The notes under the pieces: model-generated
Told to the model about the DNA's origin: nothing
The model's input: the letters and a program-made list of their open reading frames with translations, nothing else
Databases searched by the model: none
Shown here: in pieces, positions 15,421-22,904 of the stretch
Position numbering within the stretch: position 1 is the stretch's first letter
How the letters are laid out: each line of letters opens with the position of its first letter
Translations under genes and position numbers: made by a program
Sequence record: DRR378314_1572
DNA length: 39,767 nucleotides
Direction: 5' to 3' (one strand)

Positions 15421-15621
15421 AACTTATCAGTTGTGTAATGTTTCCGCCGGATTCCCGGCGAGTGTCCCGGCCCGGTACAGGTTTCCAAACATTCCTCTAA
15501 CCGGTGCCGTGAAACTGACGAGGTTGCTTATGCCTCGGCTTAAAACTGCTCCTGTATGGTCTGCTTCATGGCGCCCGGAGAAACCGGGCAGTCCTGTCAC
15601 GACAACTAGAATGGTGTGGAC

Positions 15622-15894
15622 ATGGAACAGCAAAACACTCGCAATCTCAGCGTCCCCGGCCCGGATGGCCAGATGCTGACCCTGGCGGATCTTCCGTCGC
15701 CGAATATTTCCCGCTGGGTTACCCGTCGCAAAGCTGAAGTCGTTGCTGCAGTCTCAGGGGGGCTCCTGAGCCGCAAGGCAGCCTGCGATCGCTACAGCCT
15801 GAGCGATGAAGAATTCGAGACGTGGGAAAAGCTTTACTCCCGTCACGGCACCAAGGGCCTGCGTACAACACGCTTGCAACAATACCGCCGCTAG
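15622..15894 (+). CDS. sciP: CtrA inhibitor SciP (DUF1153)
   Basis: GPDG..LTLADLP....RWV.RRKAEVVAAV.GGLLS...AC.RY.LS.EEF..W.....HG..GLRTTRLQQYR. Confidence 0.95.
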   Translation: MEQQNTRNLSVPGPDGQMLTLADLPSPNISRWVTRRKAEVVAAVSGGLLSRKAACDRYSLSDEEFETWEKLYSRHGTKGLRTTRLQQYRR

Positions 15895-15926
15895 ACTGCG
15901 ATCATGTTTAACGGAAAGTTTTTTCG

Positions 15927-15942
15927 TTAAACTCAAATTTAC
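15927..15942 (+). promoter_or_regulatory. CtrA-binding site (class II flagellar-type promoter)
   Basis: TTAA-actcaaa-TTTAC, 8/9 match to TTAA-N7-TTAAC; a second TTAAC at 15908. Confidence 0.7.
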
Positions 15943-16004
15943 AAGCCAGCGCCTATCACTGGTCCCCGAATGCCGGAAAACCACGCCGGTATGGGGAGTT
16001 TCTG

Positions 16005-16685
16005 ATGGAAAACAGGCTTGTCAGACTTAGAAACAGCGCGATGCTCTCCACACGAGCGGTCGCGCTGTTTGCGCTTGTGATTGCAGTTGTGCTCAGCTCC
16101 TGGCGCGGCGCAGACCTGTTTACCCATCCCGTCGAGGCCTGGGTGCCGGGCTCCACCATTGAAGCCTCGCTCATGGGGATTCTGGAGCCAGTCGCCGGAA
16201 ATGGGAATATTCGCCTGTCCGTTACAGGCGATGGCGGGTCTGGCCGATCTGTCCTCATCCTGCTGGAAAGCACGGCCGCAGAAACTGCGCCGACCCTGCA
16301 ACGCCTGGCGACATCTGCGTTGCTTCTGTCGCCGGAAGCCGGCGACCAACTCGTCATCGAGCAGGCAGAATTCGCGCGCGGCGTTGCCGGGCGTCCGGAT
16401 GCGGCCGGTTGGACGGAACTCGGCCTCTATGCGTTGCTTTGCAGCCTGCTGGCCTGGGTCGGTTTTCGTGCGCCCGCCGATGAGGCTGTCAGCGTTTCCC
16501 AAGATACGCCCGCCGCTGAAACGAAGACAGCGCGCCGTGACACAGCCGAGATCATTCCTGCGCCGACCACACCACGCACCGTCCGCCAAGCCGATCCTGA
16601 TGCGGCGGCGCTGGTGCGCAAGGATCCAGCCCGGACAGCTTCCATCCTGCGCAGCTGGATGCGCGGAGAAGGGGGCGCCGCATGA
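16005..16685 (+). CDS. fliF: miniature FliF-like MS-ring protein (TM - RBM3 core - TM - FliG-binding tail)
   Basis: ILEPVAGNGNIRLSV, RSVLILL, AGDQLVIEQAEF and C-terminal LVRKDPARTASILRSWM are FliF signatures; only 226 aa; overlaps fliG at ATGA. Confidence 0.75.
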   Translation: MENRLVRLRNSAMLSTRAVALFALVIAVVLSSWRGADLFTHPVEAWVPGSTIEASLMGILEPVAGNGNIRLSVTGDGGSGRSVLILLESTAAETAPTLQRLATSALLLSPEAGDQLVIEQAEFARGVAGRPDAAGWTELGLYALLCSLLAWVGFRAPADEAVSVSQDTPAAETKTARRDTAEIIPAPTTPRTVRQADPDAAALVRKDPARTASILRSWMRGEGGAA

Positions 16686-17611
16686 CCGCGCTCGCCATTG
16701 CCCGTCCGCGCAAGGAAACCGGATTGGCTCGGTCGGCACGCCTGATGCGCGCGCTCGGCCCGGAAGCTGCACCTGTCTGGAATGAATTGAGCGCTCAGGA
16801 AGCGCGCGCTTTGTCTGCCGCAATGGACGCGCTGGATGACAATCAGCGCGAAGATGCCAGTACGCTGGAGACCTACAAACAGGCGCACCAGACGCCGGAA
16901 GCTGACATATTTAATCAGAACTCGGTCTGGGCCAGCGCATCAGAACTCGAGACCCGCGATCTGCTGAACCTTGCTGAAGGCCAGCATCCTCAGACACTGG
17001 CGCTCATGGTGTCAAAACTGGACGGGGCGGCCTCGGCCCGTTTGCTGAAATCGCTGGAAAGACCGCTCGCCGTCGATGTCATGCAACGCTTGCTGCATAT
17101 CGGGCCTGCACATCCCGCGGCGATCACGGCCCTTGAAGCGGCTGTCGGTGGCTGGATGAACAATGCTGCGCCATCTGCGCGCAGCGGCGGTCATGAGGGC
17201 GTGGCCCGTATCTTCGACCGGATGGATAGCCGCGCAGAGACAGATTTGCTGTCTGCACTTGAAACGGCGGAGCCAGGGTCAGGTGAGCGTGTGCGTTCCC
17301 TGATGTTTACGTTTGATGATCTTGCCGCTCTGGATGCCGGCGGTCTGCAAACCTTGCTGGCAGCGGCAGACCGTACGCGGCTGACCTTTGCGCTGAAAGG
17401 CGCGCGAGAAGAGACGCAGGCGGCTTTCTTCCGCAACATGACCCAGCGCGCGGGCGAGCTGCTGCGCGAAGAGATTGTCATGCTCGGCTCGGTTCGCCGC
17501 AGTGAAGTCGAGACCGCTCGTATGGAGCTGGTTGATCTGGCGCGCACTCTGATCGAACGCGGCGACATTCGCGCAGGACGCCCGCAGGACGAGGATGAAC
17601 TCGTCGAATGA
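16682..17611 (+). CDS. fliG: flagellar motor switch protein FliG-like (divergent)
   Basis: QHPQ (canonical EHPQ), GG linker, MFTFDDL, ALKGA, FFRNMTQRA...REE...VRRSEVE. Confidence 0.9.
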   Translation: MTALAIARPRKETGLARSARLMRALGPEAAPVWNELSAQEARALSAAMDALDDNQREDASTLETYKQAHQTPEADIFNQNSVWASASELETRDLLNLAEGQHPQTLALMVSKLDGAASARLLKSLERPLAVDVMQRLLHIGPAHPAAITALEAAVGGWMNNAAPSARSGGHEGVARIFDRMDSRAETDLLSALETAEPGSGERVRSLMFTFDDLAALDAGGLQTLLAAADRTRLTFALKGAREETQAAFFRNMTQRAGELLREEIVMLGSVRRSEVETARMELVDLARTLIERGDIRAGRPQDEDELVE

Positions 17612-18012
17612 TCCATCGCGCCGTCAAATCCGTTACACCGTTTGAGTTTCGCAGCGATTTCACTGCCGATACGATGAAGCCGGTTGAGGTCGACCCGCCG
17701 GTGAAGCTGACGACGCCGGAATTGCTGGACATGCTGGCCGAGGCACGCGCAGAGGGCGCGGCAACCGCCCGGCTCGAACACCAGACTGACGAATCAGCCC
17801 GCTTGCAAGACGTGACGAATGCTCTCAACGAAGCCTTGGCCAATCTGGTTGCGCTGACCGGACATCTGGAGGCGTGTGCGTATGACGAGGCTTTCAGCGA
17901 GCGTGCCCATGCGTTAATAAGGGCGACGGCCCGCACAATACTGGACGGGCAGGGTGACTTGTTTGCAGCCCGGACTTCCCTGAAGAGCGACAACGCCGAA
18001 GGATCATCATGA
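17608..18012 (+). CDS. truncated FliH/FlbE-like protein
   Basis: Lies between fliG and fliN; N-terminal FEFRSDF aromatic motif and ARAEG coiled-coil; only 134 aa. Confidence 0.55.
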   Translation: MIHRAVKSVTPFEFRSDFTADTMKPVEVDPPVKLTTPELLDMLAEARAEGAATARLEHQTDESARLQDVTNALNEALANLVALTGHLEACAYDEAFSERAHALIRATARTILDGQGDLFAARTSLKSDNAEGSS

Positions 18013-18275
18013 CTCAACCTGCAAATCCCGCGCTGAAGAAAAGCCTGATGGATGTGCCCGTCCGTGTGGACGTGGTGTTGGGTGAAATGCGCATGCCCAT
18101 TGAGGATCTGATGGCGATGGCAGAAGGCGATATCGTTGCCCTTGAGCGCCATACCAATGAACCGATCGACATTTACCTGTCAGATCGCCTCATGGCGCGC
18201 GGCAAACTGGTCATCGCAGATGGTCAGCTTGGTGTCACCTTGTCGGAAATTGTCGACGAGCGTGCCGCGGCCTGA
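18009..18275 (+). CDS. fliN: FliN/SpoA-domain C-ring protein
   Basis: LMDVPVRVDVVLG...GDIVAL....EPIDIY...RLMARGKLVI..GQLGVTLSEIV. Confidence 0.9.
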   Translation: MTQPANPALKKSLMDVPVRVDVVLGEMRMPIEDLMAMAEGDIVALERHTNEPIDIYLSDRLMARGKLVIADGQLGVTLSEIVDERAAA

Positions 18276-18340
18276 GCCGCGCCCAAATTATCATTAAATC
18301 CTTGCAACACGCCGCAATTCCTAACGGAAGAAAGGAAGTT

Positions 18341-18362
18341 GTTAACCTTTCGCGGTGTTAAC
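18341..18362 (+). promoter_or_regulatory. two CtrA-type half-sites upstream of the flhF-like gene
   Basis: GTTAAC at 18341-18346 and 18357-18362 in an AT-rich spacer. Confidence 0.45.
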
Positions 18363-18441
18363 TGTTTCCAATGACAGCATGTCCTGCCGGACTATTGGGG
18401 TGGCACTCGGCGGGGTGATTAACACAAGGGAACATGCAGAC

Positions 18442-19449
18442 ATGCGCATGAAGATGTTCGCCGCGGAGACCCTTGAGGCCGCCAAAGCGATGATTTTTGC
18501 CGAAATGGGCGCCGACGCCGTCATCCTGTCCGAGCGGGAGATCGAAGGCGGTGTGGAAGTCCGCGCGGCCACAGACAAGCTGGGCGGCGGCGTTGTGCCG
18601 AGTGAGCCTCTCTTCCTGAGGGACGCTCGGGGAGGGCATGGCCGCGGCGCTGAAAATCCACTCTATAGCCGAGTGCGGGATGCGCTGCTCTGGCATGGTG
18701 CGCCGCAACGGTTTGCGGACCGTGTGGCCCATGAGGGTGCAGACCAGAATGCGATCCCCGGAGATTCGCCAGAGGATTCGATTGCTGCTGGTCTTGAGCG
18801 CATCGTCACCTGCGATCCAATCCCGGCGCGTCTGGAGAAAGACATCATTCTGGTTGGTCCACCCGGACATGGCCGCACGGCGACCGCTGCCAAGCTCACA
18901 CGCCGCGCCGCAGTGGCACGCACGGCCATCCTGCCAGTTGCTGCAGACCTCGACGGAACGGCTGGCGGCGAACAGCTTGCGGCCTATCTTGAGAATGAAC
19001 GCGACCAGATCCGCATTGCGGAGACGCCAGATGCCCTGTTCGACGCGCTGCGCGCCGCCCGGGCTGCAGGTCAGCGCTGTGTGATTGACCTGCCAAGCAT
19101 TAATCCATTCGATCAGGATGACATGGCCAGCCTGCAGGACCTGATCCAGGTCGTGCGCGCCGAGCCTATCCTCGTCATGTCGGCAGAAGGTCACCCCGAA
19201 GACCAGACGGATGCCGCAAAGATCTTTGCACGGGCCGGTGTTCGCCGCGCAATTCTGACCAAGCTGGATATTGCCCGGCGGCGGGGAGGGGCGATTTCCG
19301 CACTTTCCTCTGCCGGCATAGCCTTCTCACACCTAGCTGTAACGCCATTCATCGGCGGCGGACTTGTCCCGGCTGCACCCTCCCGGCTCGCTGCGCTGCT
19401 GATGGAAGATGCGCCGGGCGATGTTATCGCCCTGAAAGGAGCTGCGTAG
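18442..19449 (+). CDS. flhF: FlhF-like SRP-family GTPase with degenerate active site
   Basis: FlhF N-terminus MRMKMFAA...EMGADAVILS...VEVRAA; G1 GPPGHGRT, G3 DLPS, G4 TKLD; directly upstream of flhG. Confidence 0.8.
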   Translation: MRMKMFAAETLEAAKAMIFAEMGADAVILSEREIEGGVEVRAATDKLGGGVVPSEPLFLRDARGGHGRGAENPLYSRVRDALLWHGAPQRFADRVAHEGADQNAIPGDSPEDSIAAGLERIVTCDPIPARLEKDIILVGPPGHGRTATAAKLTRRAAVARTAILPVAADLDGTAGGEQLAAYLENERDQIRIAETPDALFDALRAARAAGQRCVIDLPSINPFDQDDMASLQDLIQVVRAEPILVMSAEGHPEDQTDAAKIFARAGVRRAILTKLDIARRRGGAISALSSAGIAFSHLAVTPFIGGGLVPAAPSRLAALLMEDAPGDVIALKGAA

Positions 19450-19453
19450 TCCT

Positions 19454-20293
19454 ATGAGCTTCATGCTTCGAAAATCTCAGGAACGTCCGGCCCAGCGCCC
19501 GACGCCTCGTGTTGCCCCGGCCTCCATTATCGCTGTTGCCAGCGGCAAGGGCGGTGTGGGCAAGACCTTCATGGCCATCACCCTGGCATCGGCCTTTGCG
19601 CAGGCAGGAAAGCGGACCTTGTTGGTCGACGGTGACCTCGGCCTTGCCAATGTTGATGTTCAACTGGGCATTGCTCCGGAAACGGATCTCGCCGCAGTTA
19701 TTGCTGGCTGGGTCGAACTGGATGATGCGGTCACGCCGGTCGATGGCGGCGCAGCGGATGGCGGCTTTGATGTGCTGCCGGGCCGGTCTGGCTCGGGCGC
19801 GCTGGCAGAATTGCCGCCAGAAGAAGTTGCGCGCCTGGCGGCCGGACTTTCCGCGCTGGCGCTTCAGTATGATCAGGTCGTCGTCGATCTGGGCGCCGGC
19901 ATTGAGGCCAATTGCATGCGCTTGGCGCGTGCGGCTGACAAGGCGCTCATGGTGATCACCGATGAGCCGACATCGATGACGGATGCCTACGCCTTCATCA
20001 AGGTGCTGCGTGGCTATGCGCCGAATGTCGAGCCGGTCATCTGTATCAACCAGGCAGAGTCACGCGCCGCGGGGCAGCGCACTTACGAAGCCATTGCGCG
20101 GGCTTGTCAGACTTTCCTGGGCTTCCGGCCCCATCTGGCCGGTACGGTCATGCGGGACCCGAAAGTGCGGGATGCCATCCGTTGCCAGAAGACGCTGATC
20201 TCGACCGATCAGCAGGCCCAGCCGATCCAGGATGCCATCGCAATTTCGCAGATGCTGATCGGTGGCCGTCAGGGCGCGGATCTTGGCTATTAA
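19454..20293 (+). CDS. flhG: MinD/ParA family ATPase FlhG (FleN)
   Basis: ASGKGGVGKT deviant Walker A, DGDLGLANVDVQLG, DLGAG, EPTSMTDAYAFIK. Confidence 0.9.
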   Translation: MSFMLRKSQERPAQRPTPRVAPASIIAVASGKGGVGKTFMAITLASAFAQAGKRTLLVDGDLGLANVDVQLGIAPETDLAAVIAGWVELDDAVTPVDGGAADGGFDVLPGRSGSGALAELPPEEVARLAAGLSALALQYDQVVVDLGAGIEANCMRLARAADKALMVITDEPTSMTDAYAFIKVLRGYAPNVEPVICINQAESRAAGQRTYEAIARACQTFLGFRPHLAGTVMRDPKVRDAIRCQKTLISTDQQAQPIQDAIAISQMLIGGRQGADLGY

Positions 20294-20322
20294 TTTGTGT
20301 GAAGAAAGCGGAAGTTTGGGGG

Positions 20323-20416
20323 GTGAATCGCACGGCTTGTTAACCTTCGTTAAAGGATCAGCCCGTAGGATTCACATTGACAGGAAATGCGGCTAACTTG
20401 GTCGTAATGATGATTC
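20323..20416 (+). promoter_or_regulatory. ctrA promoter with a CtrA site and three CcrM (GANTC) sites
   Basis: TTAA-ccttcg-TTAA (20340-20353); GANTC at 20325, 20369 and 20412; TTGACA at 20377-20382. Confidence 0.7.
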
Positions 20417-20428
20417 GGGAGACGAGAG

Positions 20429-21142
20429 ATGCGCGTCCTGCTGATTGAAGATGATAGTGCGGTGGCGCGTTCCATCGAGTTGATGCTGAAGGCTGCAGGC
20501 TTCAACATCTACACAACCGACCTCGGTGAAGAGGGCGTGGACCTCGGAAAAGTGTACGAGTACGACATGATCGTTCTCGACCTGTCCCTGCCGGACATCT
20601 CCGGATACGAAGTGCTCAAGCAGCTTCGCATGGGCCGTGTGAACACCCCGGTCATGATTCTTTCCGGCAATCCGGACATCGAAGCCAAGGTGAAAACTCT
20701 GGGCTATGGCGCAGACGACTACCTCACCAAGCCATTCAACAAGGACGAGCTGATCGCCCGTATCACGGCCATTGTGCGCCGCTCCAAAGGCCATGCCGAG
20801 AGCGTTATCCGCACTGGCGAAATCGTCGTGAACCTCGATGCCAAGACCGTGGAAGTCGACGATGAGCGCGTCCACCTGACCGGCAAGGAATACCAGATGT
20901 TCGAGTTGCTCTCCTTGCGGAAGGGCACGACGCTGACCAAGGAAATGTTCCTGAACCACCTGTATGGCGGTATGGACGAGCCGGAATTGAAGATCATCGA
21001 CGTGTTCATCTGTAAGCTGCGCAAGAAGCTGCAGAATGCGACCGGCGGAAACCATTACATCGAGACTGTCTGGGGCCGCGGCTATGTGCTGCGCGACCCA
21101 CGCCCGAGCTCGAAGACAGCGGATATCGAAGAAGCCGCATAA
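20429..21142 (+). CDS. ctrA: cell cycle master regulator CtrA
   Basis: [23 protein letters not shown], Asp51, [53 protein letters not shown]-terminal AA degron. Confidence 0.98.
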
Positions 21143-21320: not shown

Positions 21321-22904
21321 ATGAAAAGACATTGGGGTCGGACTCTGCTTTTGGCAGGGTGTGCAATACTTGCGCTGGGAGCATGTGGGGGAGGCGGCGG
21401 CTCATCCGATGGTGGTGTGACGGCCAGTCCGCCCCCTCCACCGCCCCCACCCCCTCCACCACCCCCGGCTAACACGCCTCCGGAGCTTGCCTATACGCTC
21501 ACGCCTGAAAGTCCCGAGGAAGGTCGCCCATTTGTAATCGACGCGACCGCTTCCAGCGATGCAGAGGGCGAGCCATTGACGTGGACCCTCGAACAGGTCG
21601 CCGGGCCGGCGCCCAGTGACGTGCCGCTCGGAGAGGATGAGGCCGTTGAAGGAGAGGCCATGTTTGCCTTCCGGGCGCCTGAAGTGGATCAGGATACGCT
21701 GATGGAGTTCGAACTCACGATTTCCGATGGTGAGGATATCACAATGGAGCGGATTTCTGTCGGAATACAGAATATCGAATTGACCCCCACTGTGTCGCTC
21801 TTGGGGGAGGCGGTTGCGCTATTTGACGGTCTTCACAATCCGGAACAGGCCGATTTCTACTCCATGTCGTTCGGAGATCACGAGATTGGTGTGAACGGCA
21901 TCGCCGATGCTGATGACGATTCCGGACGCATTCTTTTCCGCTACATGAATGATTATGTGACCGAGGAATTCTCGGACCTCCAAACCCTTGCGTTGGAAGG
22001 GTCGGTCGTGGGAGAGAGCGCCACTCTGCAAATGGAATACATGAACGGGTTTTCGCCTTCCTTGCTGATCGGGCTGGAAGAGAGCGATCAAATTCATATC
22101 AAGGAAGCATTTGCCCAAATCGTGGAGACGGAGGCGCCGTGCGCCTTTTCGCTGCTCAGTTCTTCGATCCACGACACACAGAATGACCTGCTCGTCGGCA
22201 GTAGAGGTGCCGGCTTGAAGATATTTCAGTTCGACAAGTTTCCGCGTGGCACCTTCGCGCCCGGTGAAGAGCCGGTGCTGGAAGTGGGGCCAATTTTGGC
22301 GAGCACGGGAAATTTCTGTTTTGCGAACGCCTGGGGCAGCCACATCATTGGATATGATGAGGCGACAAGTACGTTGCGTTTCTGGGACGTCGTATGGGGA
22401 GGTGAACCGGACGAGATGGCGTCTGTGCCGATCAGCCTGCCCGAGAGCGGGCCGCTCGTGGATGCCGATTTTTACATAGATGAGGTAGGCCATTTTGTTG
22501 CAGCCTTCGTGTCCTCGAATGGCGCACATGAGGGGCAACATGAACTGTGGATTTATGCCAACCAGTTTGATGGCTCCGGTCCGGTTCAGGTCCAGAAATA
22601 TAGCTGGGACAAGGGCGTTCCTTCTGATGTGATATTGGCGGATTTGGATACGGGCGACGTGGATGCTCAGGCGGATGTTCTCATCACTCTGGAGACGGTG
22701 CCGTATCTCATCCGTGTCGAGCAGACGGGGGATTTGTCGCTGGGGGATACCAGGCCGAGCTTTGAAGAGTTGACCTATGTGCCCACTACGCTCTGGAACA
22801 CCAGCGTTCGCAAGGCAGGCGCCCCCGACTTCACGACCCAGACGCTGATCTTGACCCAGACCCGGACGGGGAAGGTGTCGATGATGGAATTGACACCCGA
22901 CTAG
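21321..22904 (+). CDS. acidic lipoprotein with poly-Pro linker, PKD/Ig-like domain and probable beta-rich C-terminal domain
   Basis: Lipobox LGA-C, Gly5, Pro13, DATASSDAEGEPLTWTLEQVAGP...FRAPEV...FELTISDG. Confidence 0.75.
   Translation: MKRHWGRTLLLAGCAILALGACGGGGGSSDGGVTASPPPPPPPPPPPPPANTPPELAYTLTPESPEEGRPFVIDATASSDAEGEPLTWTLEQVAGPAPSDVPLGEDEAVEGEAMFAFRAPEVDQDTLMEFELTISDGEDITMERISVGIQNIELTPTVSLLGEAVALFDGLHNPEQADFYSMSFGDHEIGVNGIADADDDSGRILFRYMNDYVTEEFSDLQTLALEGSVVGESATLQMEYMNGFSPSLLIGLEESDQIHIKEAFAQIVETEAPCAFSLLSSSIHDTQNDLLVGSRGAGLKIFQFDKFPRGTFAPGEEPVLEVGPILASTGNFCFANAWGSHIIGYDEATSTLRFWDVVWGGEPDEMASVPISLPESGPLVDADFYIDEVGHFVAAFVSSNGAHEGQHELWIYANQFDGSGPVQVQKYSWDKGVPSDVILADLDTGDVDAQADVLITLETVPYLIRVEQTGDLSLGDTRPSFEELTYVPTTLWNTSVRKAGAPDFTTQTLILTQTRTGKVSMMELTPD

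Follow-up and report, generated by a model that had tools for sequence, protein, structure and literature searches.

What is left for flagellar ring genes to do once everything that serves secretion has gone from among them? The question is raised by a Hyphomonas gene cluster between sciP and ctrA in a stretch of 39,767 nucleotides from sequence record DRR378314_1572 (hereafter the window), in which a miniature form of the MS-ring protein FliF (mini-FliF) is encoded together with FliG, a stub of FliH (mini-FliH), FliN, FlhF and FlhG. The cluster is a domain-trimmed counterpart of the Caulobacter-type flagellar locus, has been conserved over long periods and persists in relatives that possess no flagellum. 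It probably encodes a rotor-stator ring that has neither an axle nor an export apparatus and acts in signalling or polarity outside the flagellum. Genome-wide statements rest on the nearest genome, G001, which shares 71% of sampled 31-mers with the window, and on other genomes.

The trimmed ring genes of the window

The array consists of eight intact open reading frames (ORFs), sciP, mini-fliF, fliG, mini-fliH, fliN, flhF, flhG and ctrA, all on the plus strand and in one orientation. Its features are the following (positions in the window; aa, amino acids; SRP, signal recognition particle):

15616-15894, plus strand: sciP, CtrA inhibitor, first gene of the array (NF051866, 129.5 bits against a cut-off of 100; PF06627)
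15927-15941, plus strand: putative promoter element between sciP and mini-fliF, with the CtrA-box-like sequence TTAA-N7-TTTA (one mismatch to TTAA-N7-TTAA)
16005-16685, plus strand: mini-fliF, 226 aa (FliF profile match, RBM3 fold)
16682-17611, plus strand: fliG, 309 aa, of the ancestral Caulobacter-type lineage, N-terminal region shortened (FliG_N, FliG_M, FliG_C)
17608-18012, plus strand: mini-fliH, 134 aa (hhalign match to FliH of sister genera)
18009-18275, plus strand: fliN, 88 aa, limited to the SpoA domain (TIGR02480, 87.8 bits against a cut-off of 84.05; PF01052, 79.1 bits)
18276-18441, strand not applicable: fliN-flhF spacer, 166 bp, the slot of flbD and flhA in sister genera (comparison with the sister locus)
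18442-19449, plus strand, frame open from 18355: flhF-like SRP-type GTPase (PF00448, 53.1 bits)
19454-20293, plus strand: flhG-like MinD/ParA ATPase (CbiA and AAA_31 matches)
20340-20354, plus strand: second CtrA-box-like motif, 5' of ctrA (one mismatch to TTAA-N7-TTAA)
20429-21142, plus strand: ctrA response regulator (NF045991, 410.2 bits against a cut-off of 350)

The mini-fliF/fliG, fliG/mini-fliH and mini-fliH/fliN junctions are four-base overlaps with an ATG start, each reading ATGA. Orthologue alignment places the likely start of flhF at Met30 (position 18442), which gives the fliN-flhF spacer its length of 166 bp; the flhG-ctrA spacer measures 135 bp. Neither the ORF list nor the family scans revealed export gate, rod, hook or filament genes within the window cluster. 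A sequence-only reading of the window had described this co-oriented array with its intact frames, its three ATGA junctions and both spacer lengths, and the ORF coordinates and start codons, with flhF beginning at 18442, agree with it on each point. The same reading had taken the 226-aa protein for a FliF that has lost the ring-building motifs RBM1 and RBM2 and the beta-collar while keeping RBM3, and the 134-aa protein for a FliH without its FliI-binding part; both identities hold on the evidence that follows.

In Pfam and NCBIfam scans the 226-aa and 134-aa proteins had no family match at all, and pairwise BLASTP against FliF and FliH of sister genera was marginal or empty. The 226-aa protein is nevertheless a true miniature FliF, composed of a first membrane helix (TM1), a collar-less RBM3, a second membrane helix (TM2), a cytoplasmic linker and a putative FliG-binding tail. 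A profile made from an alignment of 23 homologues matched Salmonella FliF (6scn) in the PDB with an E-value of 6.7e-9, in two collinear pieces in which profile positions 47-75 correspond to FliF 240-268 and positions 97-222 to FliF 408-559. The approximately 21 positions in between (76-96) replace residues 269-407 of the Salmonella protein, a stretch including the beta-collar, and only about 46 residues with one membrane helix stand N-terminal of RBM3. These alignment limits imply that FliF 269-407 and all pre-RBM3 parts save one membrane helix are missing.

The AlphaFold (AF2) model of mini-FliF (mean predicted local distance difference test, pLDDT, 79.4) comprises TM1, an alpha-beta-beta-alpha-beta unit at 51-120, TM2 at 133-154 and two C-terminal helices at 198-219. 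A Foldseek search with the whole model returned nothing at E <=0.001, the best FliF match reaching 0.011, and re-alignment with VIA-align settled the matter. Its top matches were 14 FliF S-ring entries (Z 8.6-10.1, root mean square deviation 1.7-2.2 Å over 75-77 residues, 26% identity to Salmonella FliF), while the best unrelated fold scored Z 7.3; residues 49-124 of the model span Salmonella FliF 242-438. Profile and structural alignment agree that the RBM3 ring-building motif is present, and profile and model alignment that the beta-collar insertion within it is absent. PF01514 (YscJ_FliF), which covers RBM1 and RBM2, matched neither the window protein nor any of the 23 family members scanned, and PF08345 was touched by only five of the 23, with a best E-value of 4.5e-5. 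Since RBM1, RBM2 and the beta-collar are absent, mini-FliF has no housing for an export gate or a rod. Profile positions 194-222 align with the C-terminal ends by which FliF of Salmonella and Vibrio binds FliG, and the 23-homologue alignment shows no variation at Pro208 and Trp218. Mini-FliF is like the FliF of Salmonella (6scn/6sd3/7cg7) and Vibrio (8z5v) in its RBM3 fold, its second membrane helix and, by sequence match, a C-terminal helix that may bind FliG, and unlike them in size (226 aa against about 560 aa) and in being devoid of the PF01514 region and the beta-collar. As a separate observation, two genomes of genus g3 (G040 and G055) each contain a second PF01514 match in a 374-aa frame beside the flagellar FliF, which may be an SctJ-like component belonging to a different secretion system.

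Of FliH, the 134-aa protein keeps the N-terminal part, with the C-ring-binding segment and coiled coil, and lacks the FliI-binding domain. An hhalign comparison of its 19-member profile with FliH of sister genera, from which the sister ORF L057:5951-6586 was left out as being in the wrong frame, gave a probability of 92.5% and an E-value of 4.7e-7 over 85 columns, residues 7-92 corresponding to FliH 2-86; the match ends at residue 86 of the 207 of sister FliH. The sister protein itself matches the NCBIfam FliH model at E 2.4e-19 and PF02108, the C-terminal FliI-binding domain, weakly at 85-177 and 63-170. PF02108 found no match in the 134-aa protein, and its profile search of G001 returned nothing. 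Mini-FliH has an N-terminal aromatic motif, and in its model residues 1-35 are disordered and helices 36-89 and 94-131 form a hairpin; a PDB profile search with the family yielded coiled-coil noise only (E >=0.014).

FliG of the window matches PF14842, PF14841 and PF01706 with 36.1, 46.1 and 106.9 bits, all above the cut-offs, and the equivalog model TIGR00207 with 150.3 bits, under the cut-off of 226.7. It is 33% identical to FliG of sister genera and 20% identical to the fla2-type FliG of its own species. In E. coli the charged residues of the FliG torque helix face MotA. Among 21 FliG sequences, those of aflagellate genomes included, Arg256 is invariant, the second position of the acidic pair of this helix is acidic in all 21, and the first is acidic in most and Ser in three; an E-x-P-Q-like motif is found in most of them. 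FliN shares 46% identity with the sister protein.

FlhF scores 67.4 bits against TIGR03499, under the cut-off of 174.15, and its orthology follows from synteny and from 44% identity to the flhA-linked FlhF of a sister genus; a TIGR03499 profile search retrieved mainly other SRP GTPases. Its P-loop reads G-x-P-G-x-G-R-T in all 11 clade members, as against G-x-P-G-x-G-K-T in both sister sequences, which belong to flagellated, Caulobacter-type organisms. The D-T-A-G-R motif is missing in the mini-ring clade and in the sister sequences alike, and T-K-L-D is retained. FlhG is 70% identical to the product of the sister flhG directly 3' of flhF, a position that the gene also occupies in the window and in aflagellate genomes. 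The deviant Walker A motif K-G-G-x-G-K-T is seen in the sister alignment, and the MinD-like NCBIfam matches fall below cut-off, there being no FlhG-specific model in the libraries used. The pair shares with the known switch for flagellar placement and number the succession of an SRP-type GTPase and a MinD-like ATPase from a flagellar locus. It differs in the Arg of the P-loop, in the sub-cut-off TIGR03499 score and in being kept, at 62-87% identity, where flagellar genes are gone.

The ancestral locus and survival without a flagellum

In sister genera of the same GTDB family (Hyphomonadaceae), the full locus has the order sciP-fliF-fliG-fliH-fliN-flbD-flhA-flhF-flhG-(GGDEF-EAL)-fliI-ctrA, which bears out the Caulobacter-type order given in the sequence-only reading. 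In four genomes of these genera, sciP precedes genes for full-size FliF (558-604 aa), FliG (352-379 aa), FliH (207-217 aa) and FliN (113-122 aa); next come a gene for a sigma-54 activator, which takes the slot of flbD, then flhA, and lastly genes for an SRP GTPase of 330 aa and a MinD-like protein of 278 aa. In one such locus (L056) a Sigma54 activator and an FHIPEP protein are encoded between fliN and flhF, and a GGDEF-EAL gene, fliI and ctrA come after flhG. This GGDEF-EAL gene (L056:12292-14271, sister genome G009) lies between flhG and fliI and is absent from the 135-bp spacer of the window. Gene order and orientation are the same in the window as in this class II locus, SciP, FliG, FliN, FlhF, FlhG and CtrA are orthologous (CtrA with 91% identity to a sister-genus copy), and a CtrA-box-like element 5' of fliF is common to both. 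Unlike it, the window is without flbD, flhA, the GGDEF-EAL gene and fliI, its FliF and FliH are domain-trimmed, its FliG and FliN are shortened, and its module survives in the absence of a flagellum.

The G001 genome contains a complete, separate flagellar cluster of the fla2 type in a divergent flgB/fliI arrangement. One arm comprises flhB, fliR, flhA, fliQ, fliE, flgC and flgB, and the other fliI, flagellin, fliK, flgD, fliL, flgH, flgA, flgG, flgF, motA, fliM, motB, flgE, flgK, flgL, flgI, fliG, fliP, fliN, a fliH-like gene and fliF. A second, full-length set of ring genes with flhA is accordingly present (fliF, fliG, fliN and flhA). An earlier study likens the flgB/fliI arrangement of Hyphomonas neptunium to the fla2 set of Rhodobacter sphaeroides (PMC6180460). 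Together with the G001 cluster, this upholds the earlier supposition that the flagellum in use belongs to a type other than that of Caulobacter. The fla2-type cluster (C1:525-557 kb; L050, L051) has a G+C content of 0.53-0.57, compared with 0.57-0.63 for the window cluster, which is consistent with, and no proof of, horizontal acquisition. A small GGDEF protein is encoded next to its flhB.

Mini-FliF was detected in 27 of 61 sampled genomes of the family, in 8 of 18 genera. In a sample of the order it occurs in 28 of 31 genomes of the family and in none of the 120 that represent five further families. Among 301 genomes sampled from the class, one of which (G301) is unpublished and was not used for any claim, the short form matching the full profile is present in G001 only; 35 other matching genomes align only from profile position 79, in frames that are nearly all 436-630 aa long, two of these partial matches lying in shorter frames of 190 and 347 aa. 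A search of 1.84 billion representative proteins with the mini-FliF profile retrieved 169 at E <=1e-10, and 140 of the best 150 representatives measure 111-250 aa.

The sciP/mini-fliF/fliG/mini-fliH/fliN core is intact, with conserved gene sizes and neither stop nor frameshift, in all 20 related loci fetched, and sciP stands 5' of fliF or mini-fliF in each of them as well as in the sister genera. It is followed by flhF in 12 loci (in L035 the contig ends within flhF) and then by flhG and ctrA in 11; in the other eight, flhF and flhG are located away from the ring operon. In the more distant genomes mini-FliF shares only 19-40% identity with the window copy, its frame being undisturbed, and mini-FliH is 27-48% identical across genera, while the lengths, membrane segments and terminal motifs of the two proteins are conserved. 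When the window is compared with RNA-library contigs from related strains, 39 differences are listed in coding sequence, and by hand count 35 of them affect the third position of a codon. Inserts of other DNA, about 3 kb long, were observed within two arrays, between mini-fliH and fliN in L034 (G014) and between fliN and flhF in L037 (G049), with the flanking genes undisrupted.

Eleven genomes from five genera are aflagellate by gene content, family searches having found flagellin, FlhA and the PF01514-type FliF in none of them. An assembly artefact that dropped a flagellar island is unlikely, because 10 of the 11 genomes are 97-100% complete and because five genera are involved. Exactly one FliG is encoded in 10 of the 11, within the mini cluster wherever the locus was fetched; one MotA and one MotB are each present in 10, and a FliM-like protein (E <=1e-39) in nine. 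FlhF was retained in all nine aflagellate genomes tested, at 62-74% identity where a figure is available, and FlhG in all six tested, at 84-87% in five. One genome, G061, has lost all of the module genes too. In contrast, a study of aflagellate Caulobacteraceae reports flagellar genes there as completely absent (PMC12700997). Since flagellum-less relatives retain the module, it must serve something beyond the building of a flagellum.

Two explanations are decided by these genomes. The first regards the cluster as the vestigial remains of the ancestral flagellar locus, with decay pending, and can point to deletions that take out whole functions and to the fast evolution of mini-FliF and mini-FliH across genera. 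It does not account for the absence of stops and frameshifts from 20 of 20 loci despite such divergence, for the conservation of lengths, membrane segments and terminal motifs, for an invariant promoter motif (see below), for the bias of strain differences to third codon positions or for retention after independent loss of the flagellum, and has next to no credibility left. According to the second, the genes are accessory parts of the working fla2-type flagellum, which place, count or assemble it or add to its C-ring, and have no role of their own. In its favour, 20 of the 27 mini-FliF genomes also encode a full flagellar FliF, PMC12826062 presents FlhF and FlhG as classical regulators of flagellar placement and number, and neither flhF nor flhG was found among the scanned ORFs of the G001 fla2 cluster. 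That cluster has, for its part, its own FliF, FliG, FliM, FliN, FliH-like protein, FliI, MotA and MotB; moreover, seven of the 27 mini-FliF genomes, and 11 genomes in all, are without flagellin, FlhA and full FliF, and aflagellates across several genera keep ring genes, stator, FlhF and FlhG intact. As a sole role this explanation is improbable, and like vestigial decay it was rejected because the 11 flagellum-less genomes nearly all keep the module.

The sequence-only reading had argued that the losses were not random decay and that a conserved, ring-derived module with a non-flagellar role had remained. Persistence without flagellin, FlhA and full-length FliF supports this, and the frameshifted or patchy orthologues that it had named as signs of decay were not seen in the 20 loci. 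Its suggestion that the module positions a separately encoded flagellum fails as an account of the whole function, because aflagellate genomes have the module as well.

Literature searches found no description of the trimmed cluster. A comparison can be made with flagellar relics of non-motile or post-ejection cells, such as the PL-ring subcomplexes treated in PMC7183148, which are likewise a subset of flagellar parts without a filament. Those relics remain in the outer membrane and periplasm from a flagellum that was once complete, whereas the mini module, a subset of inner-membrane and cytoplasmic parts with a stator of its own, is fixed in the genome.

Partners outside the window and the candidate promoter

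Judged by co-occurrence, the module appears to extend beyond the window and to include three proteins whose genes lie elsewhere, one of them FliM-like and the others a divergent MotA and a divergent MotB. In G001 a 408-aa protein with a C-terminal FliMN_C domain only is encoded next to dksA (C12; L053:8891-10117). Strong homologues of it are confined to the mini-cluster genera, and sister genera gave weak C-terminal matches to FliM-sized frames. ESM Atlas assigns it to the FliM/FliN family at 0.95, and its structural rows do not exceed a template modelling (TM) score of 0.41, for which reason 'FliM-like' is a label and not a proof.

All 20 genomes containing both mini-FliF and a full FliF encode two MotA proteins, scoring 113-124 and 62-92 bits (one second copy is partial, 36.9 bits), and all seven with mini-FliF only encode a single MotA of the low-scoring type. 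Two MotA proteins occur in none of 34 genomes without a mini-FliF match. The divergent MotA consequently accompanies mini-FliF in all 27 genomes that encode the latter. The matching MotB, as seen in an aflagellate genome, retains the plug, the channel Asp and the OmpA domain. In the locus L078 of the aflagellate genome G045, the divergent motA and fliN share a strand and are about 4.4 kb apart. Just 3' of fliN, with a 113-aa ORF of no known family in between, this locus encodes a lytic transglycosylase (SLT_2) that has a peptidoglycan-binding domain (L078:6385-7773).

These partners bear on a third explanation, in which the ring passively marks a pole or regulates the division site. FlhG with FlhF would use a static scaffold of mini-FliF, FliG, the FliM-like protein and FliN to label the pole or bud or to block polar division, and MotAB would be unrelated. 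FlhG of Campylobacter reportedly acts with MS- and C-ring proteins in division-site control. FlhG is also the best conserved member of the module, it and FlhF are present in every aflagellate genome tested, and the parts of FliF that build the ring and, by sequence match, bind FliG are exactly those retained. Conservation of the torque-helix charges of FliG is left unexplained by a static scaffold, as are the tracking of the module by divergent MotA/MotB (27 of 27) and their outlasting of the flagellum; furthermore, flhF-flhG is unlinked from the ring operon in the eight loci mentioned above. A landmark of this kind is, on balance, rather unlikely. Because the FliM-like protein, MotA and MotB co-occur with the module and the stator-facing charges of FliG are kept, a device engaged by a stator is likelier than a passive landmark.

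The consensus of the CtrA box is TTAA-N7-TTAA. In 14 aligned sciP/mini-fliF spacers from several genera, four of them from aflagellates, the TTAA and TTT columns of the motif at 15927-15941 are invariant in all 14, the mean column identity being 40%. This points to binding of CtrA to the spacer and to control of the cluster by CtrA, which we infer from the motif. The genes are covered by RNA-library contigs from four runs of four studies, and in run X6 the depth varies along the stretch from 0.44 to 489, with the peak on ctrA and sciP. Beyond ctrA, a 527-aa ORF (21321-22904) has a Gly run and a Pro run near its N-terminus. Pfam found nothing in it, and the NCBIfam models that matched it, all weakly, are for a domain of M36 peptidases; between ctrA and recR of G043 the ORF is absent.

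Proposed mechanism and its weight

A Hyphomonadaceae subclade would have exchanged its ancestral Caulobacter-type flagellum for one of the fla2 type, or lost flagella altogether, while selection preserved a reduced set of the old motor's core parts, namely mini-FliF, FliG, the FliH stub, FliN, the FliM-like protein, the divergent MotA/MotB, FlhF and FlhG. Mini-FliF would form a small, S-ring-like membrane ring carrying a C-ring of FliG, the FliM-like protein, FliN and the FliH stub. Having no export gate, rod, hook or filament, such a ring would export nothing and turn nothing outside the cell. Dedicated MotAB stators may engage it via the conserved torque helix of FliG, FlhF and FlhG may place or count it, and CtrA may time its synthesis, with a CtrA-type promoter driving expression late in the cell cycle. 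Its most likely job would be that of a polar signalling or organising hub, after the model of the stator-dependent 'mechanical' pathway of cyclic di-GMP (c-di-GMP) and adhesion. One version of this ring is advanced tentatively as a possibility: a free-standing, ion-driven rotor-stator without an axle, in which the mini S-ring/C-ring is turned or gated by MotAB, placed by FlhF/FlhG and timed by CtrA. Its output would be unrelated to motility, for example an intracellular signal (c-di-GMP-dependent adhesion or development) or the organising of a pole or bud.

The 'mechanical' surface signalling of Caulobacter crescentus offers a close parallel. According to Hershey, Fiebig and Crosson (2021, PMC7885107), a holdfast pathway dependent on the stator and on proton flux needs the inner-membrane rotor and not the outer flagellum. 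The inner-membrane rotor and proton-conducting MotAB that it uses are the set kept here. There the pathway, which came to light in mutants, is only a secondary activity of a motor that is complete, whereas here it would be the sole function of a permanently truncated machine.

Several observations weigh against an active rotor-stator ring. The FliM-like protein was not found in the aflagellate genome G020, and its gene has an in-frame TAG in the flagellated G053. The tie of MotA and MotB to the module is one of co-occurrence only, the genes being unlinked in G001. The orphan MotA is 45% identical to the MotA of sister genera, as against 56% for the fla2 MotA, and a synteny check of orphan motA against sister motA was negative, so that descent of the orphan stator from the ancestral one is not established. 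The N-domain of FliG is shortened. The predicted complex of the FliF tail with the FliG N-region scores 0.46 against 0.02 for the best control, with contacts agreeing to at least 76% and a partner pLDDT of at least 60, at a level (0.60 or less) where just 5 of 78 solved complexes reached the mark, as did all four mismatches that passed; it lends weak support and may be the memory of a similar solved complex. The Lys-to-Arg change in the P-loop of FlhF may mean an altered or lost GTPase cycle. One-mismatch occurrences of TTAA-N7-TTAA number three in the whole window where 2.05 are expected, which is not above chance, and the uneven depth of run X6 looks like RNA rather than contaminating DNA and is no proof of transcription. 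No diguanylate cyclase partner was identified, DgcB not having been sought. Formation of the ring, engagement of the stator, polar location and a signalling output are all steps that we infer.

Flagellar genes in non-motile bacteria are usually dismissed as decay, and here a coherent subset of them outlives the flagellum in several genera. The module provides a natural minimal system in which non-motility roles of the rotor-stator core and of the FlhF/FlhG switch can be studied, and a natural 'RBM3-only' FliF for the study of S-ring assembly. It also allows a direct test of an idea from Caulobacter genetics, according to which the inner motor can act as a signalling device in its own right. 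Because genetic tools work in H. neptunium, these hypotheses can be tested at once. If the proposal is true, no earlier case would be known of a flagellar motor core that was exapted for a purpose other than motility and that flagellum-less bacteria have retained.

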